The notes: generated by a model from the letters alone, not told the origin. DNA of 64,000 nt from an uncultured Thermoplasmata archaeon (GCA_963768855.1 CAVYJM010000021.1:47710-111709), one strand, 5' to 3'. Positions 17,872-59,845 are shown, numbered from the stretch's first letter. Numbers and translations: made by a program.

Positions 17872-17947
17872 GTCCGGCCCGCGAACAGTCGGCGGGCGGT
17901 TAAACCTCGCGCCTGGGCTATTCCTCCACGACGGGCGGCCCTCAAGC

Positions 17948-42650: not shown

Positions 42651-42794
42651 CTGTTGCCTGACGCGCTCGCGGTACATAGGCTTGAGGGCCTTGCCCGCGA
42701 GGAGGTGTCGGAAAGCCCAAGCTGGGTCTTTCGATTCCCGGTTCTGGGCCAGGGAACCGCGTGGGGCCGAGCAAGGGAGCCGGTCTCTCGTTCC

Positions 42795-43184: not shown

Positions 43185-43386
43185 TGTCTCACCCCCTCCG
43201 TGCAAGCCGGTGGTTCGAGAATTTGGCCAGGCGCCCTTTGTCGGCGCGATGATCAGGGCCCCGTACGACTACGCAAGAAATCCGAGTTCCCCGACCGTGT
43301 TACGCAATAGCATGCAAGGGTAAGAACCTGTCGACATCCCGCTTACCTCCGGCGAGGCCCCTGGAATCCTCCGGAGGAGCACGAAG

Positions 43387-43977
43387 CTAGGCATTGTGCC
43401 GCAGGACCTCGGTGGCCACGCCGTCCAGGCAAAGCGGGGACATCTTTCCGACCGAATCCTCTTGCTTGCAGACGCGACTGAGGTCGCATTCAGGGCAGAA
43501 GCGGGCATGGAGGTCGTCCTCCGTGACGCCGAGGACGTCCGCGTCGTCGAAGAGCTCGTAGAGAAGCTTGAGGTACTTCCCCTCGGCGAGGCGGGGGACG
43601 TCGTACTTGGCCGCCTTGAGGCCGCCCTTGGCCGTCGTGTAGTATTCGTAGAGGCGCCGCGGCCCCTTCGAGGCGTTGCAGGACCGGCAGACCCAGGCCG
43701 CGTTCTTCTCGTCCTGAGGACCGTGGAACGCCTTGGGCATGAGGTGATCTAGGGTCAGGTCCCCTGCGCGACCGCAGTAGAGGCAGCGGTGGAAGTCGTT
43801 GTGCTCCTTCACGTACTCCCGGATCGAGTCCCAGGCAATCTCCCCGGACTGGAGCTTCTTGAAGCGCTCCATGACGAAGGCCCACTGCTTCTTGCCGACG
43901 CCCGCGGAGTCGGCGATGATCTTGGCGTACTGCCAGTACATCAGGTCGCGGAGATCGCGGATCGCGGCGGGCGGCAT
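43387..43977 (-). CDS. Stand-alone HNH endonuclease
   Basis: CLYCG...LTLDHLMP...NAAWVCRSCNASKG (Zn-coordinated HNH); extra C-terminal Cys cluster. Confidence 0.85.
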   Translation of the reverse strand: MPPAAIRDLRDLMYWQYAKIIADSAGVGKKQWAFVMERFKKLQSGEIAWDSIREYVKEHNDFHRCLYCGRAGDLTLDHLMPKAFHGPQDEKNAAWVCRSCNASKGPRRLYEYYTTAKGGLKAAKYDVPRLAEGKYLKLLYELFDDADVLGVTEDDLHARFCPECDLSRVCKQEDSVGKMSPLCLDGVATEVLRHNA

Positions 43978-44242
43978 GCAGTTTCCCCGATGCGCGAGAC
44001 GAGGACGAGCGGCTATGAAGGCTCGGTACGCATTGTGACCACGTTTTGATGGTCCAGGCCGAGGGGTCGCGAGTTAGGATGACTACACCTCAGAGGCCTT
44101 TCACACCGAAGCTTGCGTCCCGTGGGGCTCAGGAAGTTACTTCTTTCCGAAGTCATTAGCCGCTCGCGAGAGCGGCAGGAACAGGACGCGGTGAGCCGTG
44201 AGGAAACGCCGAGCCGGTCGGTCGGACGCGAGGGGTCAGGGG

Positions 44243-45373
44243 ATGAAGGTGCGCAAGCCGCGACTGAACGACACGGCGTTCTTGGGCATCTGCTATCCGT
44301 CGAAGAGGCTCCTCCTGAATGAGAAACGCCTGTTCATGCCCGCGTCCACGACGAAGCTCTACACGTCCTGGCTCGCGTGCGAGTCCCTGGGCGAGGACTT
44401 CGTCTTCCACTCCGAGTACTCGGTTCAGGGCAGGACACTCTACCTGAGCCCCCGGGCCAACCCCCTGCTCTCCGAGGAGTCCTTCCGTGATCTCCTGCAG
44501 GATGTCGGAGGCCACCGGATCGAGGAGGTCGTCTTCGCCCCGCATTTCCCCCATGCCCCTCGCTATCCGTCCACGTGGGCGATCGGGGATGTGCGGGAAG
44601 CGTGGGGTGCACCCATTTCCGACGTCTGCTTCCGGGAGAACTTCATCACGGTCGACGGATCGAAGGATTGCGCGGTCACGCCGTCGAGCACGTACTACGT
44701 TCTCCGGAAGGTGCGGGGGCTCAAACGCCCCTTCGTCCGAGGCCGGGTGGTCTCGGTCCCGACGGGATACACGGGGACCTTCGAGTTCCCCATACGCAAC
44801 CCTGAGGACTTCCTCGCCTACTGGTTGGGAGAACGGATGGGTGGACGCCCCCTGAAAAACCGGAGCGGGAACTTGCGCGGGCCCGCGACGGCCTTCGCCC
44901 ATGTGCCGCTGAGGGACGTGCTGCGGACGATGAACAAGCGGTCCGTCAACATCCTCGCCGAGCTCCTCCTCCGCCATGCCTCGTCCGCGCGAAGCATCCC
45001 GCTCGACGACCAGCAGCCCCAGGCCGCGTTCACGCACGCGCTCCACCCCATCCACGTGGACGACGCCCTCCTGTACGACGGCTCGGGCGTCTCCCGGTAC
45101 AACCTCGTCTCGCCCGCGGGAACCGTGCGGCTCCTGGAGGCTTCGAAGAAATATCCCTCCATTCTGGACTCGCTGCCCATTGGCGGCCGGGATGGCACAC
45201 TCGCGGACCGGAAGCTTCCTCGGAGGATCCGTGCGAAGACCGGCTCCCTCACCGGGGTCCAAGCTCTCGCAGGCTACGATGGCGACGAGCCCTTCTCCAT
45301 CGTGATTAACCACGGCCCTCCCGACGAGCGGGTCATGGTGCAAGCCATCGACCGGATCGTTCGAGGTCACTGA
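44243..45373 (+). CDS. dacB: D-Ala-D-Ala carboxypeptidase/endopeptidase, peptidase S13 (DacB/PBP4-like), no signal peptide
   Basis: All three penicillin-binding motifs: PASTTK (SxxK), KRSVN (SxN), AKTGSL (KTG); also DGSGVSRYN and SLPIGGRDGTL. Confidence 0.88.
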   Translation: MKVRKPRLNDTAFLGICYPSKRLLLNEKRLFMPASTTKLYTSWLACESLGEDFVFHSEYSVQGRTLYLSPRANPLLSEESFRDLLQDVGGHRIEEVVFAPHFPHAPRYPSTWAIGDVREAWGAPISDVCFRENFITVDGSKDCAVTPSSTYYVLRKVRGLKRPFVRGRVVSVPTGYTGTFEFPIRNPEDFLAYWLGERMGGRPLKNRSGNLRGPATAFAHVPLRDVLRTMNKRSVNILAELLLRHASSARSIPLDDQQPQAAFTHALHPIHVDDALLYDGSGVSRYNLVSPAGTVRLLEASKKYPSILDSLPIGGRDGTLADRKLPRRIRAKTGSLTGVQALAGYDGDEPFSIVINHGPPDERVMVQAIDRIVRGH

Positions 45374-45386
45374 ACCGGTTCTGCGG

Positions 45387-45704
45387 CTACGCCCGCCTCT
45401 GCTGCGGTGCCTTCATCCTGCGGTAGAGGATGGACTCCGCGGCGAGGGCCGGCACGAGCAGGACGACGAACACGATCCACGAGAAGCCGCCCTCGACCAC
45501 CGAGGCGACCCACGGGAGGAGGATGCCGTCCGCGAGGACGCACGCAGACAGGTAGAGCGATTGCAGCGTCAGGGTCGACAGAGGCTCCTCGGCCAGGCTC
45601 ACCAGGCGCTCGCGCCTCCAGCGGCTGTATCGCCGCATGAGGCCATCGAGGCCCCCGGCCTCGGTTTCCGAGGCCGCGCGGTCCGAGGCTTCAGCCGTCC
45701 CCAC
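45387..45704 (-). CDS. Small 2-TM membrane protein at the end of the opp operon
   Basis: Strong SD GGAGGTGA-CCC-GTG overlapping the oppF 3' end; two hydrophobic segments. Confidence 0.6.
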   Translation of the reverse strand: MGTAEASDRAASETEAGGLDGLMRRYSRWRRERLVSLAEEPLSTLTLQSLYLSACVLADGILLPWVASVVEGGFSWIVFVVLLVPALAAESILYRRMKAPQQRRA

Positions 45705-46722
45705 GGGTCACCTCCGGGGCTGCCGGTGGACTCGAGGGACCGAAGACATGGCAGGCGACGTAGTGCCCCGGCTCCATCTCGACGAGTTCGGGTTCCACCT
45801 TGTCGCATGCGTCCACCTTGTAGGGGCATCGAGGATGGAAGTGGCATCCCGACGGGAGGGAGCGCAGGCTCGGCGGTTCTCCGGCCAGGGTGACCTCGAG
45901 GTCCGTCCCCTCGGCCTCCGCGATGCTGAGGAGGGCGCGGGTGTAGGGATGGAGGGGGTTCGTGTACAGGGACCGCGTCTCCGCCCGCTCGACCACCTTG
46001 CCCGCGTACATGACCATGATCAGGTCGCACATGTGGTATACCACGGCCATGTCATGGGAGATGAACAGGTACGTCAGGTCGAGCTCCTTCTGCAGGGTGG
46101 CGAGGAGCCGGAGGATCTGCGCCTGCACGGACACGTCCAGGTTCGAGGTGGGCTCGTCCAGGATGAGGAGCTTGGGCTTCAGGGCGATCGCGCGCGCGAT
46201 GCCGAGCCGCTGCTTCTGCCCGCCCGAGAACTCATGCGGGTAGCGGTAGAGCTGGGGCTTCTCGAGACCGACCTTTTTCATTAGGTCGGTAACCTCCCGG
46301 GTGAGTTCCTCCCCATGGAGCTTGAAGTGGATCTTGAGCGGTTCGCCGATGATGTCGACCGCCAGCTTCCGGGGGTTCAGGGAGGAGATGGGGTCCTGGA
46401 AGACCATCTGGAAGTTGACCCGGAACTTGCGCAGCTTCTTGCCGTGGAGCTCGACCAGGGGTTGTCCGAGGAGGGCCACGGATCCGCCGGTCGGATCGAT
46501 GAGGCGCGCGATCGTCCGAGCGAGGGTCGACTTCCCGCTCCCGGATTCGCCGACGATGCCGAGCGTCTTCCCGTGCTCGAGCTCGAAGGTCACACCGTCC
46601 AGGGCGCGGATGTAGCCTTTCAGGAGGGACAGGAGGCCCGACCGGATCGGGAAGTGCTTCTTGAGATCCTCGACGTCGAGCAGGCTCGCAGGTGCGGGTT
46701 CGGGTTCAGCCTGCATGGCCAC
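45691..46722 (-). CDS. oppF: Oligopeptide ABC transporter ATP-binding protein
   Basis: [39 protein letters not shown]...CHFHPRC. Confidence 0.95.
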   Translation of the reverse strand: MAMQAEPEPAPASLLDVEDLKKHFPIRSGLLSLLKGYIRALDGVTFELEHGKTLGIVGESGSGKSTLARTIARLIDPTGGSVALLGQPLVELHGKKLRKFRVNFQMVFQDPISSLNPRKLAVDIIGEPLKIHFKLHGEELTREVTDLMKKVGLEKPQLYRYPHEFSGGQKQRLGIARAIALKPKLLILDEPTSNLDVSVQAQILRLLATLQKELDLTYLFISHDMAVVYHMCDLIMVMYAGKVVERAETRSLYTNPLHPYTRALLSIAEAEGTDLEVTLAGEPPSLRSLPSGCHFHPRCPYKVDACDKVEPELVEMEPGHYVACHVFGPSSPPAAPEVTRGDG

Positions 46723-48991
46723 CTTCCCCCTTCAGCGGATGGAAGCACGCGGCGGAGCGTCCGGTCCCGAGGACCTCGAGCGGCGGATCCTTCTTGAGGC
46801 ACTCCTCCGTGGCGCGTTCGCAGCGGGGCGCGAACACGCACCCCACCGGGATCGCCTTCAGCTCGGGCAGGGAGCCCTGCATCGTGTAGTACTCGCCCTT
46901 CGGGACGAACGCGCCCCCGCTCCGCACCTTGGGCAGGGACTTGATGAGCCCGTTCGTGTACGGATGCCACGGGTCGGAGAAGATCTGGGCCAGGGGACCC
47001 TCCTCCACGAGCTTCCCCGCGTAGACCACTCCGACGCGGTCGCAGAACCGCCGGATCACGCTGAGGTCGTGGGAGATGAGGAGGACGGAGACGCCCAGTT
47101 CCTCCTTGAACTTCTTGATTAGGTCCAGGATGTTCCGCTCCGTGACCACGTCGAGCGCGGTGGTCGGCTCGTCGCAGATGAGCAGCTTCGGGTTCGAGGC
47201 CATCATCATCCCGATCATGACCCGTTGCTTCATGCCGCCGGACAGCTCGAAGGGATAGAGGTCGACCGTGCGCTCCGGATCGGGCACCAGCGCGCGCCGC
47301 AGGTCCCGGACCGCGAGCCTCCGGCAGATGTCCCGGGTCCGCGGGTCCGGGGGTCGGTCCGGGCCGAGCTTGCGCTTCTCGTAGGTCTGGTAGAGTTCCC
47401 GGTACTTGAGCAACTGGGACCGTTGCCTCCCGGAGAACTGCTCGGGCACGACGTCCGCGGGGGACCGTCTCGCCCCCTTGGGCGGCTCGACGATGGAAAG
47501 GCAGCCGGTGCAGATCCACGCACCCTCCTTCACGGTGGCGCCGCAGTAGTCGCACGGCCGCTCGATGAAGGACTGCTCCATCTCGCCCACCGCGATCTCG
47601 AGGACGAGTTCGAACTGGTGCAGGAGGTAGGTCTGCCCCATCTGGAACCCGACCTTGTACGAGGGATGGAGAGAGTCCGAGACCTCCTGGAAGATCATCG
47701 CGATGTCCTTCCCCCGAACCGCGTTCATCTCGTTCTCCTTGAGCAGGAGGAGGTTCGTGTACGTGGCGGCGTTCGCCCGGTCTCCCGCGAAGAAGATGTC
47801 GCCGGACGCGATCCGCGTCGAGCGCGGCGGGAGCAGTCCCATGATAGCCAGCGCGACGGTCGACTTTCCGCTCCCGCTCTCCCCGATGAGGCCGTACGCC
47901 TCCCCCGGCTTCACCTCGAAGCTCGCGTTCCTCACCGCATGGACCGGTCCCTCGTACGTGAGGTAGCTGATGGAGAGGTCGTCCACCTGGAGCAGGGCCC
48001 CGGGCGCCGCGGGCTCCGGGGATTCCTTGTGGACCACATCGGGCAGCCCGCGGATCGTCTGCGACAGCCACCGCCTCGAGGTCGGGTCGAACACGTCCCG
48101 CAGCCCGTCCCCGAGCAGGTTGAACGCGAGGGACGTCGTGATCAGGAAGATGCCCGGGAAGATCGGGTACCACCAGGCGACGAAGAGATAGCTCAGGCTC
48201 TGCGAGATGAGGAGCCCCCACTCGGCCGTCCCCGGGGTGGCGCCGAGGCCTAGGAAGCTCAGGGCGGCGATGGACAGAAGGACGCTCCCCAGGTCCGCGG
48301 TGGCCTGGATGATCGCGGGGGAGAGCACATTCGAAAGGATGTGGCGGAAGAAGATCGACGTCCCGCTGAGGCCCGAGCTCCGGGCGACTTCGACGAAGTC
48401 CCGGTGCTTCATCTTGCGGGTCTCGCCGTAGATGAGACGCGCGTACCACGCCCACCAGGTTGCGATCATCGCGTACACGATGTGCTCGAGGGACGGGCCC
48501 AGGGCGGCGGCGAGCGTGAGCGCGAGCACGATGCTCGGAACCGCGAGGAACACGTCCGTGATGCGCATGAGGACCTCGCCGAACGTCTTCTCGAAGTACC
48601 CCGCGATCCCGCCGATCACGATCCCGAGGAGGGCCGACGGGATCATCACCTCGAACGGGAGGACCATGTCGAGCTGCGCGGCGTAGACGGACTTGCTGAA
48701 GAGGTCGGTCCCGAGCTCGTCCGTCCCGAAGAGATGCTGCAAGGAGGGCGGCAGCAGGGCGATGTTCGTGTCCGTCGGCCACCGCTGTTGGAGCGCGCCA
48801 TTCACGTTGACGTACACCGGATGCTGGAGGGCGATGAAGGGCGCCAGGAGCGCGATCACGACGAACGCGAGGAGGAGGATGAGGCCCACCATGGAGAGCT
48901 TGCTCGTTCGGAGGGCCCTGAAGGTCAGGTTCCCTTCCCGGCCCATGACCCGGAGCCGCTCCATCGCACTGCCCCACCGGGCCGCCGCCAT
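46706..48991 (-). CDS. Fused oligopeptide permease + ATPase (OppC-OppD) with Zn-ribbon insertion
   Basis: N-terminal OppC (HLFGTDELGTD, EAA-like FVEVARSSG, NLLGDGLRDVFDP) continues in frame into OppD (GESGSGKST, LSGGMKQR, CDEPTTALD, HPYT, CVFAPRC); CDYC-x9-CTGC insert. Confidence 0.9.
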   Translation of the reverse strand: MAAARWGSAMERLRVMGREGNLTFRALRTSKLSMVGLILLLAFVVIALLAPFIALQHPVYVNVNGALQQRWPTDTNIALLPPSLQHLFGTDELGTDLFSKSVYAAQLDMVLPFEVMIPSALLGIVIGGIAGYFEKTFGEVLMRITDVFLAVPSIVLALTLAAALGPSLEHIVYAMIATWWAWYARLIYGETRKMKHRDFVEVARSSGLSGTSIFFRHILSNVLSPAIIQATADLGSVLLSIAALSFLGLGATPGTAEWGLLISQSLSYLFVAWWYPIFPGIFLITTSLAFNLLGDGLRDVFDPTSRRWLSQTIRGLPDVVHKESPEPAAPGALLQVDDLSISYLTYEGPVHAVRNASFEVKPGEAYGLIGESGSGKSTVALAIMGLLPPRSTRIASGDIFFAGDRANAATYTNLLLLKENEMNAVRGKDIAMIFQEVSDSLHPSYKVGFQMGQTYLLHQFELVLEIAVGEMEQSFIERPCDYCGATVKEGAWICTGCLSIVEPPKGARRSPADVVPEQFSGRQRSQLLKYRELYQTYEKRKLGPDRPPDPRTRDICRRLAVRDLRRALVPDPERTVDLYPFELSGGMKQRVMIGMMMASNPKLLICDEPTTALDVVTERNILDLIKKFKEELGVSVLLISHDLSVIRRFCDRVGVVYAGKLVEEGPLAQIFSDPWHPYTNGLIKSLPKVRSGGAFVPKGEYYTMQGSLPELKAIPVGCVFAPRCERATEECLKKDPPLEVLGTGRSAACFHPLKGEGGHAG

Positions 48992-48992
48992 C

Positions 48993-50021
48993 CTAACCAG
49001 CCCCCTCCTCGGAGAACCGGATGCGCGGTTCGATCCAAGCGTACGCCGCGTCCACGACAATGCTCCCGAGGACGTACGCCAGCGAGATGATGAGCGTGTA
49101 CGCGACGACGACGTTGTAGTCGAAGCCGATGATTGCCTGGTAGACCCAGTAGGAGAACCCGGCCATGCCGAAGATTTCCTCGATGAAGACCGTGCCGCCG
49201 AGCAGGCTCCCGAAGCTCAGGCCCACGATTGTCAGGGTCGGCCCCATGGCCGCGCGGAAGGCGTAGCGCCGTACGATGATCTTCTCCGGCACGCCCTTGG
49301 CCCGCAGCGCTTTGACGAAGGGCGACGACAGAATCTCGAGCATGCTCGACCGCGCCATGCGGAGCACGAGGGCGAACCCGGTGAAGCCGAGGGCAAATAC
49401 GGGGAGGATGAGGTGCACGCAGGCCGACACGAAGTCCGGCAGGTTCCCCGTGAGGAGCGAATCCAGGGGATAGAACCCGGTGATGTGGGTCGGGGGCGTG
49501 TTGGTCGGCCCGAGCAGCCCGGTCAACGGGAGGACGTGCAAGTTCACGGCGAACACGAGCTGGAGGATGACCGCCAGGAGGAACGAAGGGAAGGAAAGCC
49601 CGATGTAGGCGATCGTCCGCGAGACGACGTCCCCGAGCTTGTTCATTCGCGTGGCGGAGAGCATCCCCAGGAGGATGCCTACCGGGGTGGACCAGGCAAT
49701 CGCGAGGACGACCAGGCCCAGGGTAGCCGGGAGGAAGAGCTCGATGCCCGTGTTCACGCTCATCCGGAGGGAAAGGGAATAGCCCAGGTTCCCCTCGAAC
49801 AGGCTCGTGAGGTAGTACCAGAACTGGACAGGGATCGGATCGTTGAGGTGGAGCCGCTCCCGGATGGCATCGAGGGTCGCCGGAGACGCCTTGATGCCCG
49901 CGTAGAGCTTCACCGGGTCCGACGGCGCCACGTGGGTCACGAAGAAGATGAGTACGATGACCCCGAGGAGGACCGGAATCGCCGAGATGAGGCGCCGCAG
50001 GATAAACTCCCACATCTTCAT
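48993..50021 (-). CDS. oppB: Oligopeptide ABC transporter permease
   Basis: FILRRLISAIP, PSDPV, LFLPATL, RMARSSMLE...FVKALRAKG, FIEEIFGMAG, DAAYAWIEPRIR. Confidence 0.95.
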   Translation of the reverse strand: MKMWEFILRRLISAIPVLLGVIVLIFFVTHVAPSDPVKLYAGIKASPATLDAIRERLHLNDPIPVQFWYYLTSLFEGNLGYSLSLRMSVNTGIELFLPATLGLVVLAIAWSTPVGILLGMLSATRMNKLGDVVSRTIAYIGLSFPSFLLAVILQLVFAVNLHVLPLTGLLGPTNTPPTHITGFYPLDSLLTGNLPDFVSACVHLILPVFALGFTGFALVLRMARSSMLEILSSPFVKALRAKGVPEKIIVRRYAFRAAMGPTLTIVGLSFGSLLGGTVFIEEIFGMAGFSYWVYQAIIGFDYNVVVAYTLIISLAYVLGSIVVDAAYAWIEPRIRFSEEGAG

Positions 50022-50329
50022 CTCAGGTCACCCCATCCGGACTACCGAGCCCCTCTTCTCCCGGTATCGGGGTGCCGTTCGCCCCGCAACGCATGCCGCC
50101 GTCGCGTCTCGGTTCCCATTCCGGCGCGGCTCCTCCGCCCCTTCCCGCTGGGGAGCGGGCTTCTCGTACATAACCCTCTGGTACGTAGCGCGTGCCCGCC
50201 GCTCGTGCGTGCCTGCATCTGGAGAGAATCTCGTCACGGGTCGCGGACGGCGGTCCGCCACGGGCGGCCTCGGAACCCGTAAGTAGCGCCACGCGTTGCG
50301 CGGTGCGTCCGACGGAACGGGGGTTGGGT

Positions 50330-52903
50330 GTGCAGGACGCCCTGGACGGCTGCGGCGACGCGAGATGCGATTCGGCCGCCGATCATGCGTTCGCGCCTCT
50401 CGACACACCGCCGCAGTACGCACGGGAGCGGACGTTCCGAGAGTTGCATCTCAAGCTTGACATTTCCATCGATGGCGAAGCGCGGACCGTCTCCGGGACC
50501 GCGGTGCACCGCCTCGCGCCCATCAATGACGGCCTGCACGAGGTCGTCTTCGACCAGCAGGGACTCCGCATCCGCGGTGTGCGCGACGACGCGGGCCGCG
50601 CGATGGAGTGGGAGGTCCACGGCGACGTCCTGCTCGTGCGCCTCGCAAAGCCTCGCAAGGCCGGCGAGGCCTTTGAGCTCCGCATCCGTTACACCGGCAA
50701 GCCGCGGAAGGGCCTCTTCTTCACGGCCCCGGATGCCGGATATCCGCAGAAACCGCGCACGGTCTGGACCCAGGGAGAGGAGATGGACAATCGGTCCTGG
50801 TTCCCCTCGTACGACTATCCGAACCAGAAGTTCACGACCGAGATCATCGTCACCGTGAAGGAGGCGTACCGGGCCATCGCGAACGGCCACCTCGTCGCGG
50901 AGAAGCACGACCCGAAGAAGGGCACGCGGACGTTCCACTGGCTTCAGGACAAGCCCCACCCGAACTACCTGGTCGCCCTCGTCGTGGGCGAGTGGGACAG
51001 CAAGGAGTGGGACGCGGACGGCATCCCGGTCCAGGCGTACGTGGCCAAGGGCTACGGGAAGTACATCGACCTCGCCTTCTCCCGCGTGCCCGAGATGGTC
51101 CGGTTCTACGGGCGCGTCACGGGGCTGCGGTTTCCCTGGGACAAGTACGCCCAGGCGTGCGTTCCTGAGTTCATCTTCGGCGCGATGGAGAACACGACGA
51201 TCACGATCCTCAACGAGAGCTATCTGACGGACGAGCGGGCGTACCCCGACTACAACGCGGACTCCCACCTGGCCCACGAGCTCGTCCATCACTGGTTCGG
51301 CGACTGGATCACGATCAAGAGTTTCGGTCATGTGTGGCTCAAGGAAGGTTTCGCGAACTACTTCGAGTGCCTGTGGTGGGAGGAGCACTACGGGAAGGAC
51401 GAGTTCCTCGTCTACCTCGAGGAGATGCGGCAGCGCTACTTCGACGAGGCCGAGAAGGACTACCTGCGTCCCATCGTCACCCACGCCTTCGTCGACGCGA
51501 AGGAGATGTTCGACTCGCACACGTACAACAAGGGCGCCGCGGTGCTCCACATGCTCCGCTCCCTCCTGGGCGACGACCTGTGGTGGAAGGGGATCCGCGC
51601 CTACGTGGCGGCGCATGGGAGGGCCGCCGTGGAGACGGACGACTTCCGTGTGGCCATGGAGGCGGCGACCGGGAGGACGCTCGACGGATTCTTCGAGCAG
51701 TGGGTCTACCGACCCGGCCACCCCGAGTTCGAAGTCTCCTGGTCTTGGGACCCCGGGGCACGACAGGCCGAGGTCCGCGTGCGGCAAGTACAGGAGACAA
51801 AGGACGGTGTCCCCGTATTCCGGATGCCCGTGACCTTGGAGTTCGCCTCGGAGGACCGCACGTGGCGGGAGACCGTGCACCTGGAGAGGGCGGAGCACAT
51901 CTTCCGCTTTTCCTGCCGCGACCGACCCGAGGCGGTCCTGTTCGACCCCGACAGCGTCCTGCTCAAGCGTATCGTCTTCCGGCGGAGCGTAGCGGAATTG
52001 CGCTGGGTGCTCGCGCATTCGGCCAGCTCATGGGCGCGCATGGAGGCCTGTGCCGCCCTCGGCAGGTCCGTGGAAGCGATCGACGTGATCCCCGCACTCG
52101 AGGAGGCGCTCCGCGGGGATTCGCAATGGGCCGTGCGACGCGCCGCCGCGCTCGGCCTGGGCGATGTCGGAACGCCCGCGGCCCGGGACGCGCTGCTCCG
52201 GTCCCTCGCGGACTCTGACAGCCGCGTCCGCGTGGGGATTTACGAGGCGCTAGGCCGGTTCCGCAAGGATGAGACCGCCTTCAGGGCGCTCGCCAAGGCG
52301 TACGGGGATGACGACAAGTATTATCCCATGGCCGCCGCGGGAGCCGCCCTCGGATCGACCCGACACCTCCGAGCGTTCGAGACGATTGTCGCGGGGATGG
52401 ACCGTCTGTCCCACGTGGAGGCGATCGCGGCCCGTGCGGCAGACGGGCTGGTCGCGCTGCGGGACGAACGCGGCATCGAGGTCCTAGTGCAGAGGACGCG
52501 ATACGGGGAGCCCGAGATGCGGCGGTATGCCGCCGCGATCGCCCTGGGTCGGCTTGGGCGGGCGGTGGAGGGGCCGAGGCCCGATGTGCTGGAGCACCTG
52601 GTCGGCCTGACGAAGGACGTGAACATCCGCACGAAGCTCGGGGCCATCGAAGGCCTCGGCGAACTGGGCTCTCCCCTCGCCCTTCCGACCCTCGAGAAGG
52701 TGTACGAGGGCGAGGTCTTGTGGAGTTTCAAGAAGCGGGCACGCCGCGCCCTCCGCAAGATCCGCGAGGCGCAGGCGAACCGTGCGCCCTCGCTCGAGCA
52801 GCAGAAAGCGCTGGATGCCCTCGAGGAGGACGCCCGGGAGCTCCGGCGGCGTCTCGCCTCGCTCGAAGCGACGGTCGATGGGCTCGCGGAGTCGCGAAAG
52901 TGA
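50330..52903 (+). CDS. pepN: M1 family aminopeptidase N with C-terminal HEAT repeats and coiled-coil tail
   Basis: GAMEN exopeptidase motif, AHELVHHWFG...WLKEGFA (HExxH-x18-E), YNKGA; HEAT-like helical repeats; start uncertain. Confidence 0.92.
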   Translation: MQDALDGCGDARCDSAADHAFAPLDTPPQYARERTFRELHLKLDISIDGEARTVSGTAVHRLAPINDGLHEVVFDQQGLRIRGVRDDAGRAMEWEVHGDVLLVRLAKPRKAGEAFELRIRYTGKPRKGLFFTAPDAGYPQKPRTVWTQGEEMDNRSWFPSYDYPNQKFTTEIIVTVKEAYRAIANGHLVAEKHDPKKGTRTFHWLQDKPHPNYLVALVVGEWDSKEWDADGIPVQAYVAKGYGKYIDLAFSRVPEMVRFYGRVTGLRFPWDKYAQACVPEFIFGAMENTTITILNESYLTDERAYPDYNADSHLAHELVHHWFGDWITIKSFGHVWLKEGFANYFECLWWEEHYGKDEFLVYLEEMRQRYFDEAEKDYLRPIVTHAFVDAKEMFDSHTYNKGAAVLHMLRSLLGDDLWWKGIRAYVAAHGRAAVETDDFRVAMEAATGRTLDGFFEQWVYRPGHPEFEVSWSWDPGARQAEVRVRQVQETKDGVPVFRMPVTLEFASEDRTWRETVHLERAEHIFRFSCRDRPEAVLFDPDSVLLKRIVFRRSVAELRWVLAHSASSWARMEACAALGRSVEAIDVIPALEEALRGDSQWAVRRAAALGLGDVGTPAARDALLRSLADSDSRVRVGIYEALGRFRKDETAFRALAKAYGDDDKYYPMAAAGAALGSTRHLRAFETIVAGMDRLSHVEAIAARAADGLVALRDERGIEVLVQRTRYGEPEMRRYAAAIALGRLGRAVEGPRPDVLEHLVGLTKDVNIRTKLGAIEGLGELGSPLALPTLEKVYEGEVLWSFKKRARRALRKIREAQANRAPSLEQQKALDALEEDARELRRRLASLEATVDGLAESRK

Positions 52904-53011
52904 AAAGCGAAGGTGCAGGCTCCCGGTCTCCCGGGCGCCTGCGTTGGTCCGTCGGGACGGCAGGTCCCCTGGCCGCGATCGGCCCGTGTGGACTTCTCTC
53001 TCACCTGACCC

Positions 53012-54763
53012 TTAGGCGTGCAGGAGCTGCTGGTACACGTTCAGGAAGCTCCGGAACGGCTCGGCCGCAGACTGCGGAGCGACCGAAGTCCCGACCGACA
53101 GCGAGCTCGCTGCCGCGCTCGTGCTGGGCAGGTAGAACCAGAAGTTGTACGTGAGGATCGCGTTGTACGTGAAGTTCGTTAACGTCTTAGACACCGCGGC
53201 GATCGCCTGCGCCACGCACATGTAGATCAGGCTGGGGTTCTGGTTCTGCACGGTCCAGACCGTGTGGTAGTCCGCGATTTCCCGATTCAGGTCCGTGGTG
53301 CTCTGCGCGTCCGTGAGCGCGTTGTCGATCGTCGCGTTCGCGTACACGGTGTGGTACGTGTCCCCGCCGATCGCCGCACTCCCCACGAACGGGAGCGCGT
53401 AGTCGCTCGGGTCGTTGTAGTCCGGGCCCCACGTTTCAATCATCAGGTCCCACCCGTTCGTCTTCTGGGTCGCGCTGCGCACGGCGTCCGGAACCGAGTG
53501 GATGTCCAGGGTGATCCCGATCTGCTGGAGGGCCGCCTGGTACAGCTGGGCGACGGTCGGCTGCCACGCGATGGAGGAGATCGCGTAGAACGACACCGCG
53601 GCGCCTCCGAATCGCAGGCCGGCGCCGTTCTTGGTGAAGCCCGCGGCGTCCAGAATCGCTGCCGCCTTGGTCAGGTTATAGCTGTAGAACTTCGTGGGCA
53701 TCGACTCCGTTCCGAGGTAGATCTGCGTCGGAACCGGCCCGTTCAACGGAGTCGCGTAGCCCTGGAACGCGTTCGCGATGACCTGATCGTACGGGAAGGC
53801 CCAGCTGAGGGCCTGCCGCACGCTCGCGTTGGCCATGAACGTGTGGGTCGAGTTGATGTCGAACCCGACCATGTACGTCCGGGGGACCGGGGTCACCTTG
53901 AGCTGGACGTTCGTCGCGTTGGCCAGGGAGGCCGCCTGGGTGAACGGGATGTCCGCGATCGTCGCGTCCCCGCTCCTCGCCGCCGAGATGGCGGTCGAGG
54001 GTAGCTGGTTCAGGAGCATGACGACCTTGTCGTACCGCGCCCCGCTCGTGTCGCCCCAGTAGTTCGGGTTCCGGACCAGGACGACCTGCTGGGCCTTGGT
54101 CCAGGACTGGACCATGTACGGGCCCGTGCCCACCGTGTTGTTCGTCATCCACGCGTTGTCCTGCCCGTCCACGATGCCGCCGTTCGCCTCGACGGCCGCC
54201 TTGTCCACGATGGCGTTGGGCTCGGCCGTCGCCAAGGTCTGCAGGAACGGGTTGAAGACGTGGGTCAGTTTGAACTGGACCGTGTACGTGTCGATCTTCG
54301 TGATGCTCGACACGTTCAGTTCCTGGGAGTCGATCCAGGCCACGCCGGACGAGGGCGAGTTGATCCGGAGGACCCGCTGGAACGAGTAGACGACGTCGTC
54401 CGCGGTGAAAGGGTCGCCGTTGCTGAACTTCACGTTCTGCCGCAGGTGGAAGGTGTACGTCAGTCCGTCCGCGGAGATCCCGCCGTTAGCGACGGTCGGG
54501 ATCTGGAGGGCGAGGGCCGGAGCGAACTCGTTGATCGTGGTCAGCGGATAGGACAGGAGCGTGTCGTACGAGTTCTGGATCGGGATGAACGATCCGGAGT
54601 CGTACGCGTCGGCGGGATCCAGGGTCGAGATGTCGTACTGCGAATAGTACACGAGCGTTCGCTGCGTCGCCGCCGGAGGCGACAGCAGGATGAACGCCGC
54701 GACACCCGCAACAATCAGAATGATGACGACGGACACAACGAGAATCAACGTTCGGCGTAGCAT
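53012..54763 (-). CDS. oppA: Oligopeptide/dipeptide ABC substrate-binding protein (SBP family 5), N-terminal TM anchor
   Basis: STLDPADAYD, DGLTYTFHLRQNVKFSNG.PFTADDVVYS, VGTGPY, NPNYWG, VRQALSWA, WGPDYNDP. Confidence 0.93.
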   Translation of the reverse strand: MLRRTLILVVSVVIILIVAGVAAFILLSPPAATQRTLVYYSQYDISTLDPADAYDSGSFIPIQNSYDTLLSYPLTTINEFAPALALQIPTVANGGISADGLTYTFHLRQNVKFSNGDPFTADDVVYSFQRVLRINSPSSGVAWIDSQELNVSSITKIDTYTVQFKLTHVFNPFLQTLATAEPNAIVDKAAVEANGGIVDGQDNAWMTNNTVGTGPYMVQSWTKAQQVVLVRNPNYWGDTSGARYDKVVMLLNQLPSTAISAARSGDATIADIPFTQAASLANATNVQLKVTPVPRTYMVGFDINSTHTFMANASVRQALSWAFPYDQVIANAFQGYATPLNGPVPTQIYLGTESMPTKFYSYNLTKAAAILDAAGFTKNGAGLRFGGAAVSFYAISSIAWQPTVAQLYQAALQQIGITLDIHSVPDAVRSATQKTNGWDLMIETWGPDYNDPSDYALPFVGSAAIGGDTYHTVYANATIDNALTDAQSTTDLNREIADYHTVWTVQNQNPSLIYMCVAQAIAAVSKTLTNFTYNAILTYNFWFYLPSTSAAASSLSVGTSVAPQSAAEPFRSFLNVYQQLLHA

Positions 54764-55052
54764 GGTTCTCCCTCTCCCTCCCGACGCAGGACCGCATGCC
54801 GGCTATATACCCGTTTCTTAGAACTTCTGTCGAACTGAATCCGCGTTGTTGGCTCGTGCTTCACACTCCGGATTTCGCGCAATCCCGGTCGTGGCGGATG
54901 AGAGTTCTCGGGTTTTCTTCATCTCCGCGCCGTGTCCCGGGCGCGATGGACAATCCCTTAAGCTCGCGAGCCCCATCCTATCGCGAACAGCGAGGCGGTC
55001 GACCGTGATCTTGAAGAGCGCGTCCGTGAAGCTGGACGCGAGGATCGGCGAC

Positions 55053-56120
55053 GTGCGCCTCGCGTCGGCCAAGGTCCACCTCCTCCGCATCCCGCTCCGC
55101 CATCCCTTCGTGATCTCGCTCGGGGTCCAGCCCGCCTACGTGGGCACAATCGTGGAGCTCGAGTCCGACGAGCACACGGGATACGGGGAAGGGTCCACGA
55201 TTCAGCCGATTACCGGCGAATCGCCGGAGGGAGTGGCGGCCGCCGCGGAGCACATCCTGCGCGCCCTCGCGGACGGCACATTTGACGACCTCGAGGACTT
55301 CGGCTCCGCCGTGGATGCCGCGATCCCTGCGAACCCCACCGCGAAGTGCGCGATCGACATCGCAGTCCACGATCTCCTCGGGAAGCACCGGGGCCTCCAT
55401 GTGATCCAGATGCTGGGCGGACGCTTCGCCGATCTGCCGACGAGTCTTACGATCGGTCTTGTCCCGGTCGAGGAGAGTCTTCGGCAGCTCGAAGAGCTGC
55501 TGGCGGAGAAGTGCCAGGTCATCAAGGTCAAGGTCGGCGGCAAGGTCGAGGAGGACATCGAGCGGGTGCGGGCCGTGGCCGGGCACCTGCACGGCGAGCG
55601 GCTCTACGTCGACGCGAACCAGGGCTACTCCCTGCGGGATGCGCTCCGCCTGAGCCCGGTCCTCTCCGAGTGCGGCGCGCTGTTCTTCGAGCAGCCGCTG
55701 GACCGTCACGCGTTCGAGGACCTCCGCACCTTTCGGAAATCCTCCGACGTGCCTGTGATGCTCGACGAGAGCATCTTCTCACCCGGAGACGTCATCGAGG
55801 CCGTACGCCGCGAGGCTGCGGACTACGTGAACGTGAAGCTGACGAAGAGCGGCGGCATCCGGAATGCGATGAAGACGCTCCAAGCCGCGCAGGAATACGG
55901 CATCCAGGCCATGGTGGGCTGCATGGTTGAGGGGAAGCTGAGCACCGCGGCGGGTCTCTGCGTGGCCTGCTCCGCCCGCAACGTGAAGTTCACGGATCTG
56001 GACGGGTACACGTCCATGGTGACGCAGCCGTTCGAGGGCGGACTGACGTACAAGGACGGCATCAACAGCCCCGTGCGGGGCGTGGGGATGGCCGTGGAGA
56101 AGGTGGACGCGGGCTGGTGA
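55053..56120 (+). CDS. Dipeptide epimerase (enolase superfamily, L-Ala-D/L-Glu epimerase group)
   Basis: IKVK (KxK), YVDANQG, FFEQP, VMLDES, VNVKLTK and the epimerase-specific DLDG motif; start could be GTG 55005 or 55026 instead. Confidence 0.88.
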   Translation: MRLASAKVHLLRIPLRHPFVISLGVQPAYVGTIVELESDEHTGYGEGSTIQPITGESPEGVAAAAEHILRALADGTFDDLEDFGSAVDAAIPANPTAKCAIDIAVHDLLGKHRGLHVIQMLGGRFADLPTSLTIGLVPVEESLRQLEELLAEKCQVIKVKVGGKVEEDIERVRAVAGHLHGERLYVDANQGYSLRDALRLSPVLSECGALFFEQPLDRHAFEDLRTFRKSSDVPVMLDESIFSPGDVIEAVRREAADYVNVKLTKSGGIRNAMKTLQAAQEYGIQAMVGCMVEGKLSTAAGLCVACSARNVKFTDLDGYTSMVTQPFEGGLTYKDGINSPVRGVGMAVEKVDAGW

Positions 56121-56121
56121 C

Positions 56122-57408
56122 TCACCGAGCACCTGCGGGGATCGCCTGTCCTCGCAACAGGTCTTCCGGCTTCTCCCGCTCCCGCACGAGACGCGCCTGT
56201 CCCTCTTCGATGAGCACCTCGGCGGGCAGCGGCCTCGAGTTGTAGCGGCTCGCCATCGTGTACCCGTAGGAGCCGCAGTTGAGGAACGCGAGGAGGTCTC
56301 CCCGATCCAGCGCGGGCAGCCTCCGGTCCTTTCCCTGGATGTCCGTGTTCTCGCAGATCTGGCCGGTCACGTTCACCCGGACACTCTTCCTCGCATCGAG
56401 CTTGGTCGCCGGGAGAATCTCGTGGTAGGCGCCGTAGAGGGCGGGGCGGAGAAGGGTGTTCATCCCCGCGTCGCAGCCGACGAAGCGCTTGGCCGACGTC
56501 TTCACATGGGTGACCGAGGCCAGGAGGACGCCCGCGTCGCCGACGAGGTAGCGGCCGGGCTCGATCACGAGGGTCGGGTCGCCGATCTCCGGGGTCTTGG
56601 CGAGCCTCTCCTCGTAGGCGCCCACGACCTTCTTCGCGAGCTCCTGGATGGGCAGAGGCTTCTCGCCGAGCTTGTCGGGGACGCCGAAGCCACCGCCGAG
56701 GTCGATGAAGTCGAGCTCGATGTGGAGCGTCTTCGCGATCCGCGCTGCGATGCTCGTGAGGCGGTCCGTGATCGCGGCCCAGTACGGCGTCTCGAGGACG
56801 TTGGACCCGGCCATCATGTGCACCCCGAGGCGCTCGATGCCCGCCTCCTTCGCACGGCGATACGCCTTCAGGGCCTCTTGCTCCCGCATCCCGAACTTCG
56901 CCTCCGGTCCGGCCGTCACGACGCCGGGGAACTTCCCCTTGCCGAAGCCCGGGTTGATCCGGAAGCAGAGGGCCTCCGGCTTCCCGAACGTCAGGAGGCG
57001 GTCGAGGAGGGGGCCGTCATCCAGGTTCACGACCGCGCCGGACTCGAGGCCGTACTTCAGCTCCTCGTCCGAGTTGTAGTTCCCGGAGTAGATCAGCTTG
57101 TCCGCGGAGAAGCCCGCGGCCTTCGCGAGGAGGAGCTCCGCGGGACTCGCGCAGTCCGCTCCCGCGCCCTCCCTCCGCAGGAGATCGAGGACGGACAGGT
57201 TGTTGTTCGCCTTCACCGCGTAGTTCGCGTGGAAGTTGCCGCGCCGGGCGGCGAAGGCGTCATGGATCCGCCGGTAGTTGTCCCGGATGCGGCGCGCCGA
57301 GTACACGTAGAGGGGCGTGCCGAAGCGGGAGGCGAGCTCGACCGAGCTGATTCCGTCCACGGTCAGAATGCCGTCCTTGTCCTCCAGGTAATCGTAGATT
57401 CCGGGCAC
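56122..57408 (-). CDS. lysA: Diaminopimelate decarboxylase
   Basis: FGTPLYVY, YAVKAN (PLP lysine), DLGGGFG, EPGRYLV, GQICENTD, GSYGYTMASRYNSRPLPAEV. Confidence 0.88.
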   Translation of the reverse strand: MPGIYDYLEDKDGILTVDGISSVELASRFGTPLYVYSARRIRDNYRRIHDAFAARRGNFHANYAVKANNNLSVLDLLRREGAGADCASPAELLLAKAAGFSADKLIYSGNYNSDEELKYGLESGAVVNLDDGPLLDRLLTFGKPEALCFRINPGFGKGKFPGVVTAGPEAKFGMREQEALKAYRRAKEAGIERLGVHMMAGSNVLETPYWAAITDRLTSIAARIAKTLHIELDFIDLGGGFGVPDKLGEKPLPIQELAKKVVGAYEERLAKTPEIGDPTLVIEPGRYLVGDAGVLLASVTHVKTSAKRFVGCDAGMNTLLRPALYGAYHEILPATKLDARKSVRVNVTGQICENTDIQGKDRRLPALDRGDLLAFLNCGSYGYTMASRYNSRPLPAEVLIEEGQARLVREREKPEDLLRGQAIPAGAR

Positions 57409-57547
57409 GGGGATCCCTCTTTCCGTCTTCCGCGGCACTCCCGTGAGTTTCGGAGGAGGATATAATCCAGTCGTCCGTACCTTGGACCCGCGTGCATCAC
57501 AGGCCGTTCGCAATCCTGATGCGTCCGGTCCCGCTCCCCGGGCGACC

Positions 57548-58408
57548 ATGGCGCTCGAATGGCTCGGCCTCGCCCTGGCGGCCGCGGCCCTCAACGGTTG
57601 CAGCGTCCTCGCCGCGAAGCCGAGCGCGGACCGCCTCGGGACGTCGTTCATGTGGGTGGGCGCGATCGCGATGGAGGGGGCGACCTTCGGCGTGGCGGGC
57701 CTCCTCTTCCCGCGCGGACCCGGGACCGCGAACGCGGTCTTCGTGGTCGCCGCGGTCACGGCGGGGGTCCTGGGCGCGATGGGCTACCTCTTCTTCTTCG
57801 CGGGCATGCGGCTCGGGACGGTCGGTCTCGTCGGCACGATCTCCGCGACCACGCCGCTCCTGATCGTCGTCCTGAGTGTGGCCTTCCTGAGCGAGTCGCT
57901 TGGGAGTCTCCAGATTCTCGGCATCGCGATGACGATCGCGTGCGTCCTGCTCCTCACCATCGAACCGAGGCGGGGATCGGTCGCGCGACGCACGGCGGTG
58001 GCCCTGAGCCTGGGGAGTTTCGTGGTGTGGGGCCTCTGGGGCTTCCTCGTGAAGGCGAGCGTGGAGACCCTCGGCGAGGGCGACCTCTTTCTTCTCCTGG
58101 CGGTGGGGTACCTCGTCGTCGCGGGAATGGGCGCTGTCCTCCGGCGGAAGAGCATCGTGCCGCAAGACCGCTCCCTGCGGATGCGGGCGGTCGGCCTGTT
58201 CGTCTTCCTTTCCGGGTCCGTCGCCGGGGTCATCCTGGCGGCGGCGTACGACGTCGGTCCGGCGTCCCTCGTGGCTCCGGTGGCTGCCACCTACCCGGTC
58301 ATCGCGACCTTGGGCGCATGGGCTCTGCTGCGAGAGAAGCTGGACTGGCGGATCGGGGTGGCCCTGGTCCTCTTCGTCCTCGGGGTCAGCCTCCTTTCCG
58401 CGACGTGA
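57548..58408 (+). CDS. EamA/DMT-family transporter (paralog of 38233..39096)
   Basis: Same MALEWL start and KLDWRI end as the earlier EamA; ten-TM pattern. Confidence 0.9.
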   Translation: MALEWLGLALAAAALNGCSVLAAKPSADRLGTSFMWVGAIAMEGATFGVAGLLFPRGPGTANAVFVVAAVTAGVLGAMGYLFFFAGMRLGTVGLVGTISATTPLLIVVLSVAFLSESLGSLQILGIAMTIACVLLLTIEPRRGSVARRTAVALSLGSFVVWGLWGFLVKASVETLGEGDLFLLLAVGYLVVAGMGAVLRRKSIVPQDRSLRMRAVGLFVFLSGSVAGVILAAAYDVGPASLVAPVAATYPVIATLGAWALLREKLDWRIGVALVLFVLGVSLLSAT

Positions 58409-58428: not shown

Positions 58429-59463
58429 TTACGGCGGCAAAGGCGGCCCCGCGGGCCGCTGTTGCGTGATGCAATGGACGGCGCCGCCGCCGAGTTCGAT
58501 GTAGCGGGCGTCGATTCCGACGATCTCCCGGCCAGGGTGCACGGTGCCAAGGATCTCCAGGGCGACCTTGTCCTCTCGGATGCCGTACGTGGGCGCCACC
58601 AGGCCCCCGTTCGCGAGGTAGTGGTTCGCGTAGCCGGGCGTGATGGGGACGCCGTGCAGCGAGCGGGCCGCCGGCATGGGCAGCTGGACGACTTCCAGGG
58701 ATCGCCCGCGGGCGTCCGTGGCCGTCTCGAGCCGGGCGAGGTTCTCCGCCAAGGCGGCATGGTTGGGATCCGAGGCATCCGCCGTGGAGGCGGCGAGCAC
58801 GACGCCCGGAGCGGCGAAGGCCGCCACGCCGTCGACGTGGCCGTCCGTGAGGTCTCCGGCCTGTCCCCGGCCCAGCCAGATCACCTTCCGGATGCCCAGG
58901 TACTCGGCGAGGGCCGCCTCGATCCCTTCCCGGGACAGGTGGGGATTGCGGTTGGGGTTCAGGAGGCACTGCTCCGTCGTCAGGAGCGTCCCCTGGCCGT
59001 CGACGCTGACGGCTCCCCCTTCCAGGACCAGGGGGGCGTCGTAGCGCCGCATCCCGAGATGCTCCGCCACGCGGACGGGGGCGAGCTCGTCCCGGAGGCG
59101 GGGGAACTTGCCGCCCCAGCCGTTGAACCGGAACCGGACGGCGGCGACCCGGCCGTCGGACCGGCGGACGAAGAAGGGCCCGTTGTCCCGGATCCAGGCG
59201 TCATCCAGCTCCACGTCGAGGACGTCGACCCCCGGGCCCACGGTGGACCGCGCTCCCGCCAGGGTGGACGGATCGGAGAGGACCGTCACGGGCTCGAAGC
59301 GCCGGAGGGCCGCGATGACCTCGGCGTAGGCCCGCTTGGCCTCGCGGGCGTGGCCGTGCCACGTCGCCTCCCGGCACGGCCAGGAGACGTAGCACGCCGC
59401 GTGGTCCTCCCACTCCGCGGGCATCGCGAAGCCGTCCTGCTGGGGGGTCCGCAGCTCGGCCAT
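58429..59463 (-). CDS. aguA: Agmatine deiminase (peptidyl-arginine deiminase family)
   Basis: GFAMPAEW, DDAWIRDNGP, LEGG...DGQGT, CLLNPNRNP, TDGHVDG, GGGAVHCITQQ (catalytic Cys). Confidence 0.93.
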   Translation of the reverse strand: MAELRTPQQDGFAMPAEWEDHAACYVSWPCREATWHGHAREAKRAYAEVIAALRRFEPVTVLSDPSTLAGARSTVGPGVDVLDVELDDAWIRDNGPFFVRRSDGRVAAVRFRFNGWGGKFPRLRDELAPVRVAEHLGMRRYDAPLVLEGGAVSVDGQGTLLTTEQCLLNPNRNPHLSREGIEAALAEYLGIRKVIWLGRGQAGDLTDGHVDGVAAFAAPGVVLAASTADASDPNHAALAENLARLETATDARGRSLEVVQLPMPAARSLHGVPITPGYANHYLANGGLVAPTYGIREDKVALEILGTVHPGREIVGIDARYIELGGGAVHCITQQRPAGPPLPP

Positions 59464-59464
59464 G

Positions 59465-59826: not shown

Positions 59827-59845
59827 CGTCGGATTGTCTGAGCCC

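Follow-up and report, generated by a model that had tools for sequence, protein, structure and literature searches.

A Thermoplasmata gene cluster predicted to scavenge peptides from bacterial peptidoglycan

Gene content of the locus

The DNA analyzed here (the window) is a stretch of 64,000 nucleotides from an uncultured Thermoplasmata archaeon (GCA_963768855.1, CAVYJM010000021.1:47710-111709) and forms part of a 111.7-kb contig (C21). The source assembly, from a soil Thermoplasmata lineage, comprises 2.87 Mb with a GC content of 66%, a completeness of 93.6% and a contamination of 7.7%. A 13-kb region of the window encodes an oligopeptide importer (Opp), a penicillin-binding-type peptidase of family S13, an M1 aminopeptidase (PepN), a dipeptide epimerase and the diaminopimelate (DAP) decarboxylase LysA, which together may enable the archaeon to use peptides from bacterial cell walls. 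At the high GC content of this genome many spurious open reading frames (ORFs) overlap true genes, and the map was therefore based on third-position GC content and on profile searches (Pfam, NCBIfam). The following genes were placed in and directly around the region:

43387-43977, minus strand: HNH endonuclease
44243-45373, plus strand: short S13 peptidase of the PBP4 type, 376 amino acids, no signal peptide (PF02113, 132 bits)
45387-45704, minus strand: 105-codon, two-helix membrane ORF between the S13 and OppF genes (weak DUF3099 match)
45691-46722, minus strand: OppF/DppF-type ATP-binding cassette (ABC) ATPase (ABC_tran and oligo_HPY; NF008453, 363 bits)
46706-49060, minus strand: fusion of OppC permease and OppD ATPase, 784-amino-acid ORF (OppC_N, BPD_transp_1, ABC_tran, oligo_HPY)
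48993-50021, minus strand: OppB permease (BPD_transp_1_N and BPD_transp_1)
50192-52903, plus strand: M1 aminopeptidase PepN with C-terminal HEAT repeats (Peptidase_M1_N, Peptidase_M1, HEAT_2)
53012-54763, minus strand: OppA-type substrate-binding protein, predicted extracellular, with an N-terminal membrane anchor (SBP_bac_5, 296 bits)
54846-56120, plus strand: ORF of an enolase-superfamily (MR/MLE) dipeptide epimerase of the DxD type (MR_MLE_N/C; homology from about 55050)
56122-57408, minus strand: DAP decarboxylase LysA (TIGR01048, 391 bits against a cut-off of 297.9)
about 57549-58408, plus strand: EamA transporter
58429-59826, minus strand: agmatine deiminase

A preceding sequence-only reading had described eight of these genes, from S13 to LysA, and had noted that they alternate strands. 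Pfam and NCBIfam profiles assigned each of the eight as described, the catalytic motifs are intact, and the alternation of strands was likewise found. Three items had been missed: the small membrane ORF at 45387-45704 (minus strand), a second, syntenic copy of the locus, and two peptidases, LdcA and M55, encoded elsewhere in the genome. The small membrane ORF is kept at the same position in loci of the same genus (L008-L011), with 55-62% identity. In PepN, the motifs GAMEN330 and HELVH362 were read from the sequence. Each divergent intergenic region (50022-50191, 54764-54846 and 57409-57548) contains one A/T-rich, TATA-like element amid sequence of 66% GC; the three elements are TACATAACCC, GGCTATATACCC and GGATATAATCC. 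When the four promoter regions were searched for a shared operator, no k-mer of 8-10 bases was common to three of them.

The S13 protein had been described as a signal-less peptidase with all penicillin-binding motifs. The motifs are present (STTK35, SVN234, DGSG279 and KTG332). Its reading frame is closed 48 nt upstream of the ATG and its N-terminus is not hydrophobic (maximum 15-residue hydropathy of 0.91, against 3.43 for OppA), so that the description as signal-less holds; among the eight proteins only OppA has a hydrophobic N-terminus or membrane signal. The PF02113 score far exceeded the family cut-off of 22.8 bits, and that for the TIGR00666 equivalog, 100.4 bits, fell below its cut-off of 107.8. 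SxxK, SxN and KTG were invariant in 27 archaeal sequences (23 of a short-form clade and four of families f24 and f34; family, genome and locus handles are our own) and in 34 bacterial ones. All 21 aligned members of the short group kept SxxK, SxN, KTG and DGSG and had no signal peptide, and neither the window protein nor 20 clade members showed a signal peptide or hydrophobic N-terminus, so that the secreted or periplasmic location usual for family S13 does not apply to them. The S13 protein is thus predicted to be cytoplasmic.

In a homologue search covering 5.8 billion proteins, the scores dropped abruptly: some 50 clusters with lengths of 344-423 residues reached 238-864 bits, and the bacterial PBP4s that came next (445-620 residues) reached at most 100 bits. 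The named members of the short clade are metagenome-assembled genomes (MAGs) of Thermoplasmata. A scan of genome contigs with the S13 alignment yielded mostly bacterial PBP4, with two Thermoplasmata loci among the matches listed. A quick maximum-likelihood tree grouped the f1, f14 and f25 short forms in one clade (SH-aLRT 97), apart from the sampled bacterial PBP4s, and placed the f24 forms on a long branch of their own.

An AlphaFold model of the S13 protein (pLDDT 91.5, pTM 0.91) points to the three-domain fold of class C penicillin-binding proteins (PBPs). Its best PDB matches in Foldseek, PBP4a (1w5d; TMq 0.80, E 4.5e-25), R39 and E. coli PBP4, had TMq values of 0.73-0.80. The protein is shorter because the signal peptide is missing and many loops carry small deletions; no whole domain is deleted. 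In archaea and bacteria alike, Asp116, an aromatic residue at position 121 (W121) and Arg285 are conserved. These residues, which we take to align with residues of the meso-DAP subsite of E. coli PBP4 (Asp155, Phe160, Arg361, Gln422) proposed to bind the free end of meso-DAP, are reported here as family-wide conservation only.

The assignment of the second enzyme as a DxD-type dipeptide epimerase stood up to comparison with characterized structures. Its ORF starts at 54846, and translation probably begins near 55030. The motifs KVK159, DAN188, EQP214, DES239, KSGG266 and DLD316 were found, and K159/K161, D188, E214, D239 and K263, the catalytic set of the MLE subgroup, are invariant. In dipeptide epimerases the DxD motif after the eighth strand binds the ammonium group of the dipeptide. 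DLD316-318 aligns with the DxD of 3rit, 3jva, 1jpm and 2zad, to which the protein scored 154-166 bits; the motif is absent from the N-succinyl-amino-acid racemase 2p88. The score against the YcjG-type family NF011708 was 93 bits, with a cut-off of 343. A second epimerase paralogue of the DxD family (G000:C6:360839-361867; 284 bits to the cluster-type profile) is shared, independently of S13, by 25 of the 28 genomes sampled in the genus; it may have a housekeeping function as a dipeptide epimerase.

LysA and completeness of the pathway

LysA carries the motifs KAN66, EPGR283, RPALYGAYH321 and CENTD352, which align with those of the Aquifex DAP decarboxylase 2p3e. The PLP lysine and the DAP-binding motifs of this enzyme (EPGR, RPxxYxxxH and CExxD) are present. 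The best PDB matches were true DAP decarboxylases, 2p3e (254 bits) and 1twi from Methanocaldococcus (244 bits), against 124 bits for a D-Orn/D-Lys decarboxylase.

These scores bear on a different role for the locus, in which the module would process other D-amino-acid peptides (D-Ala-D-Ala, non-ribosomal peptides or aged, racemized protein) and the LysA-like enzyme would contribute to polyamine synthesis by decarboxylating a D-amino acid, jointly with the agmatine deiminase encoded 1 kb away. D-Orn/D-Lys decarboxylase is related to DAP decarboxylase and was detected at 124-156 bits, and characterized relatives of the epimerase accept a wide range of dipeptides, one of these enzymes being the D-Ala-D-Ala epimerase 3q45. 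LysA, however, scored above the lysA equivalog cut-off, matched true DAP decarboxylase twice as well as DokD, and kept EPGR, RPxxYxxYH and CExxD. Moreover, in none of the loci fetched from other lineages did agmatine deiminase accompany the cluster, and related clusters carry enzymes specific for MurNAc and GlcNAc. This role is rather unlikely, and LysA as a D-Orn, D-Lys or D-Arg decarboxylase acting with the agmatine deiminase was set aside on the scores, the motifs and the lack of conserved linkage.

The sequence-only reading had noted that the window holds no other dap genes and had proposed their absence from the genome as support for scavenging. Searches of the whole 93.6%-complete genome for dapA, dapB and dapF gave no match but were positive in control genomes; this outcome favors scavenging. 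LysX of the LysW/aminoadipate route was present (318.5 bits, cut-off 275.6). With dapA, dapB and dapF not found and LysX present, LysA is an orphan in this genome. The missing DAP-pathway context bears on the role of LysA and not on its family membership. Only one gene with a Mur-ligase domain was detected (Mur_ligase_M, 55 bits), which indicates that the organism makes no murein of its own and that nothing in the cell except LysA consumes meso-DAP.

LysA might still represent the last step of de novo lysine synthesis if dap genes were missed through the incompleteness of the MAG or through non-orthology, and dapB-lysA pairs do occur in other members of the order (G001 and G038). Those pairs, however, contain a LysA of a different lineage (about 50% identity) directly beside dapB. 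Within the genus, LysA of the window type (83-87% identity) was found in G009, G013, G014 and G023, and dapB was not found in G009, G013 or G023 (G014 was left out of the dapB scan). As three independent dap families would all have to be missing from a genome that encodes LysX of the alternative route, de novo synthesis is a very improbable role for this enzyme.

Among 401 genomes of the class, 132 encode LysA; it is present in all 12 genomes with S13 and in all 23 with a cluster-type epimerase (at least 465 bits), figures that are counts rather than a test, with related genomes not independent of each other.

Beyond the Opp, S13, epimerase and M1 genes of the window, two enzyme types of murein-peptide recycling are encoded elsewhere in the genome, each among unrelated neighbors: a full-length S66 LD-carboxypeptidase (LdcA, C6:661869-662816) and an M55 D-aminopeptidase (C6:199439-200248). 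The genome also has a single gene for gamma-glutamyltranspeptidase (GGT). No Mpl/Mur ligase set for re-use of the products in murein was found, and with the single Mur_ligase_M match the function here would be catabolic salvage.

Related loci in the genus and in other families

The class-wide scan detected S13 in 12 genomes of four families, and further loci were obtained from a scan for the epimerase. Conservation of the linkage across Thermoplasmata, proposed earlier as a check on the scavenging reading, was borne out: epimerase, S13 and LysA, usually with an OppA-type gene, recur together in families f25, f34 and f24. In family f14, a distance of 3-5 kb separates S13 and the epimerase, and LysA is on another contig. 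Proteins of the related loci, which have GC contents of 33-52%, showed identities to those of the window of 24-46% (S13), 34-37% (epimerase) and 40-44% (LysA).

In f25 (L106, L107 and L014; 33-35% GC), the order is OppA-epimerase-S13, with an overlap of 4 bp between the epimerase and S13 genes. LysA converges on this pair in L106 and L107; L014 ends at S13. In both L106 and L107 a YkfC-like protein with SH3 and NlpC/P60 domains is encoded next door, and in L107 an M55 D-aminopeptidase gene overlaps LysA. The f34 locus (L120) comprises OppA, NamZ, a BadF/G-type sugar kinase, GH3, epimerase, S13 and LysA. In f24, L121 encodes NagA, MurQ, S13, LysA, NlpC/P60, a binding protein, GH3, epimerase and NamZ, and L110 encodes Opp proteins, S13 and LysA, S13 and LysA being adjacent in both. 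L123 and L108 belong to one closed genome of 1.94 Mb and together encode NagA, MurQ, epimerase, kinase, GH3, NamZ, NlpC/P60, LysA, NamZ, LdcA, a binding protein, S13, GNAT, amidase, M20 and a non-DxD MR/MLE enzyme. The f14 locus (L104, 52% GC) contains OppFDCB, OppA, NagB, kinase, S13, NagA, GH3, SH3+NlpC/P60, GNAT, epimerase, MurQ and AnmK. Genes of the SBP_bac_5 family lie beside the epimerase or S13 in L014, L106, L108 and L120. An NlpC/P60 protein that is a candidate gamma-D-Glu-DAP peptidase is encoded in L104, L106, L107, L121, L122 and L123.

Judged by their sequences, the YkfC-like NlpC/P60 protein, LdcA, M55, NagZ, NamZ, MurQ, AnmK and NagA/NagB of these loci make up a peptidoglycan recycling set of the bacterial type. 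The window carries a reduced, peptide-only branch of the same system, in which PepN has been inserted and the YkfC-like and sugar enzymes are missing.

Within the genus, the loci that contain S13 all have the same S13-small ORF-OppF-OppCD-OppB-PepN arrangement; PepN is joined to the Opp genes in G014 too, and is part of the cluster only in this genus. The second copy of the locus in the source assembly, on the 19.8-kb contig C22 (L008:1-19786), is fully syntenic with positions 42351-58408 of the window. Identities between the copies were 99% for OppB, 96% for OppA and HNH, 94% for PepN, 91% for OppCD, 87% for LysA, 86% for OppF and 82% for the epimerase. S13 and the small membrane ORF, at only 68% and 62% identity, diverge much faster than their surroundings. 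OppA of the C22 copy is split over two frames near residue 81. This copy probably stems from a co-binned related population, in line with the estimated contamination of 7.7%.

The same contamination estimate, together with the bacterial type of the gene families, could suggest that the contig itself is bacterial DNA in the bin. Several observations make this hardly tenable. The 111.7-kb contig has the GC content of the genome, the named members of the S13 clade are Thermoplasmata MAGs, further genomes of the genus carry syntenic loci, with related ones in four further Thermoplasmata families, and the window combines TATA-like boxes in its intergenic regions with a gene for an HTH_10 regulator.

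Comparison of these loci also bears on whether the region merely serves general uptake and hydrolysis of oligopeptides by Opp and PepN, with S13, epimerase and LysA as unrelated neighbors. In favor of this, archaea that degrade proteins commonly have Opp and M1 genes, the strands alternate, no motif shared among the four promoter regions was found, a clostripain-type peptidase is also encoded in the window, and PepN is tied to the cluster only in this genus. The chance neighborhood that this explanation requires is nevertheless clearly improbable: S13, epimerase and LysA are again adjacent in three other families, with S13 and epimerase within 3-5 kb of each other in a fourth, at identities of only 24-46%; dedicated murein enzymes accompany them in the related loci; and in f25 the epimerase and S13 genes overlap by 4 bp.

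Some neighboring genes deserve mention in their own right. In L108 (positions 10609-18560; G143, f24), genes for GNAT, amidase, an M20 peptidase, a non-DxD MR/MLE protein (IDYPG for DLDG) and another GNAT-like protein lie together. The N-succinyl-amino-acid racemase route, known from Geobacillus, converts D- to L-amino acids. By analogy, the L108 group resembles this route, which would suit an organism that utilizes murein-derived D-Ala and D-Glu. A 427-amino-acid protein with weak Phospholipase_B/AAT (Ntn-hydrolase-like) matches is encoded beside LysA in L107 (6883-8166; f25) and L120 (11135-12367; f34). Its two copies are 54% identical and thus more conserved than S13 or LysA, and the source genome has only a 24% match (C6:207461-208372). 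The protein could be an amidase or peptidase of the pathway. In a 98%-complete relative, the locus L114 (G013:C11:8517-17382) keeps the window-type LysA and the HNH flank, and in place of the 12-kb block from epimerase to S13 it has about 7 kb with different genes: two without a Pfam match, one with a sub-threshold HVO_A0261-type match and one for a pyridine-nucleotide-disulphide oxidoreductase.

Within the window, upstream of the cluster, lie genes for a clostripain-family C11 peptidase (22638-23990, minus strand) and a staphylococcal-type nuclease with a PKD domain (39204-40853, plus strand), both of which would suit an organism that breaks down extracellular polymers. Another Opp/Dpp-type ATPase gene (59846-62065, minus strand) lies to the right of the region; in its product, as in the OppD portion of the OppC-D fusion, the ABC domain contains insertions of roughly 100-200 residues. 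Upstream of its AguA domain, the agmatine deiminase ORF (58429-59937, minus strand) contains 45 in-frame residues that match the C-terminal end of N-carbamoylputrescine amidase (positions 211-255 of the 256 of CN_hydrolase), the N-terminal part of which was not found. This piece is either an aguB remnant or a fusion.

Proposed scheme and comparison with known systems

The evidence assembled above is consistent with a Thermoplasmata system that scavenges bacterial peptidoglycan and of which the 13-kb region is the peptide branch, a reading to which we assign a probability of about 0.7. Most likely, wall peptides that bacteria shed serve the archaeon as food and their DAP is converted into lysine, because the same core genes sit in full cell-wall-recycling clusters of distant relatives. 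In the scheme that we infer, including all substrates and the order of steps, membrane-anchored OppA, together with OppB, OppC-D and OppF, would import free stem peptides released by bacteria (tri- to pentapeptides and possibly cross-linked dimers). In the cytoplasm, S13 would remove terminal D-Ala and/or cut D-Ala-(D)meso-DAP cross-bridges, and the S66 LD-carboxypeptidase and M55 D-aminopeptidase encoded elsewhere would trim the remaining D-Ala. Meso-DAP would then be freed from gamma-D-Glu, in the relatives by the YkfC-like NlpC/P60 protein; here GGT is a possible candidate for this cleavage. The DxD epimerase would turn an L-Xaa-D-Yaa dipeptide (L-Ala-D-Glu in the bacterial model) into its L,L form, and the M1 aminopeptidase would hydrolyze the latter, thereby taking the part of PepD, or of the M20 peptidase seen beside the non-DxD MR/MLE gene in f24. 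Finally, LysA would decarboxylate meso-DAP to L-lysine. With no detectable AnmK, MurQ, NamZ, NagA, NagB, NlpC/P60 or M14, the archaeon would depend on stem peptides already freed from glycan.

Several findings weigh against this reading. For the release of meso-DAP, no enzyme of the expected kinds was found in the source genome, where PF00877 (NlpC/P60) and PF00246 (M14/MpaA) had no match; the sequence-only reading had already seen no gamma-D-Glu-DAP peptidase (MpaA/YkfC) in the window, and only the related clusters encode a YkfC-like one. Genes of the sugar branch were not found either: tblastn searches of the genome with the relatives' AnmK, MurQ, NamZ, NagA, NagB, BadF/G kinase, NlpC/P60, GNAT and amidase yielded nothing. 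The cluster is accessory: of the 36 genomes of the genus, 4 yielded S13, and the 24 others of the order yielded none. Moreover, G013 keeps LysA without S13, Opp or a cluster-type epimerase. LysA is not an orphan everywhere, as dapB or a dapB-like gene occurs in f14, beside LysA, and in part of f24. The best NCBIfam match of the epimerase, NF041118 (L-Ala-D/L-Glu epimerase), reached 187 bits, below the cut-off of 500. In addition, the arginine of the 20s loop is indeed absent, as had been noted: a glycine occupies the position of YkfB Arg24, a residue associated with L-Ala-D/L-Glu specificity. Since orthologues encoded next to YkfC-like genes share this glycine, it argues neither for nor against Ala-Glu specificity. 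Finally, the assembly is a MAG with 7.7% contamination. On balance, the earlier proposal of wall-peptide scavenging was largely supported, by the orphan LysA and the conserved linkage.

A broader generalization, that in several Thermoplasmata lineages, this soil genus among them, a dedicated cytoplasmic PBP4 form, the dipeptide epimerase and an orphan LysA constitute a fixed core of three enzymes that dismantles imported cross-linked stem peptides and yields lysine, is put forward tentatively, at slightly less than even odds. If it is true, wall-less archaea would regularly draw amino acids and nitrogen from bacterial wall debris, and beta-lactams would find a target inside archaeal cells. In soils and sediments, peptidoglycan constitutes a large pool of organic nitrogen and carbon, and the consumers of its D-amino-acid peptides are poorly known. 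A conserved archaeal module of importer, cytoplasmic PBP4, epimerase and stand-alone DAP decarboxylase would provide a testable trophic link from bacterial necromass to archaea, would explain the occurrence of penicillin-binding-fold enzymes and of LysA without a DAP pathway in murein-free archaea, and supplies marker genes for metagenomic surveys. A search limited to the literature available to us found no paper on these Thermoplasmata clusters, the cytoplasmic S13 clade or the linkage of an orphan LysA.

Murein peptide recycling in Bacillus subtilis involves ykfABCD and dppA-E, which encode an LD-carboxypeptidase (YkfA), an L-Ala-D/L-Glu epimerase (YkfB), a gamma-D-Glu-diamino-acid endopeptidase (YkfC), an Opp-type ATPase (YkfD) and a D-aminopeptidase (DppA). 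The archaeal genome shares with this system an Opp/Dpp-type importer, a DxD epimerase of the MLE subgroup and S66 and M55 peptidases, and the related archaeal loci share the SH3+NlpC/P60 architecture of YkfC. In contrast to B. subtilis, the archaeal host has no murein, so that the process would be scavenging rather than recycling; its module includes a cytoplasmic S13 and LysA, has an M1 aminopeptidase amid the Opp genes, and its genome lacks YkfC. In Escherichia coli, the route runs via Opp/MppA, LdcA, MpaA, YcjG and PepD, with LysA as the sink for meso-DAP. The logic proposed here is the same: import of the stem peptide, removal of D-Ala, release of meso-DAP, epimerization of L-Ala-D-Glu, hydrolysis and decarboxylation of DAP. 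Unlike E. coli, the archaeon has no M14 MpaA, its epimerase is only distantly related to YcjG (93 bits, NF011708), its DD-peptidase is predicted to be cytoplasmic, and its LysA is physically linked to the other genes with no DAP pathway behind it.

The general idea of archaeal digestion of D-amino-acid peptides from bacterial walls is not new. Pab87 from Pyrococcus abyssi, an S12 "CubicO" peptidase, removes D-Ala from muropeptide pentapeptides, and its authors proposed in 2009 that it serves digestion of bacterial cell debris (PMC2651629). Like the S13 protein, Pab87 is an archaeal intracellular peptidase of the penicillin-binding fold, encoded beside a dipeptide ABC transporter (PMC2651629). 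The two differ in that Pab87 belongs to S12, has a lipocalin domain, forms an octameric cage and comes from another phylum-level lineage; neither an epimerase nor LysA is linked to it, and murein-sugar genes have not been described for it. The closest structural counterparts of the S13 protein are the class C PBPs E. coli PBP4/DacB, Actinomadura R39 and B. subtilis PBP4a, with which it shares the predicted fold (TMq 0.73-0.80), the SxxK, SxN and KTG motifs and the conserved Asp, aromatic and Arg residues. Compared with these enzymes, the archaeal protein is about 110 residues shorter, is 19-25% identical in sequence, belongs to a separate archaeal clade and is predicted to act in the cytoplasm.

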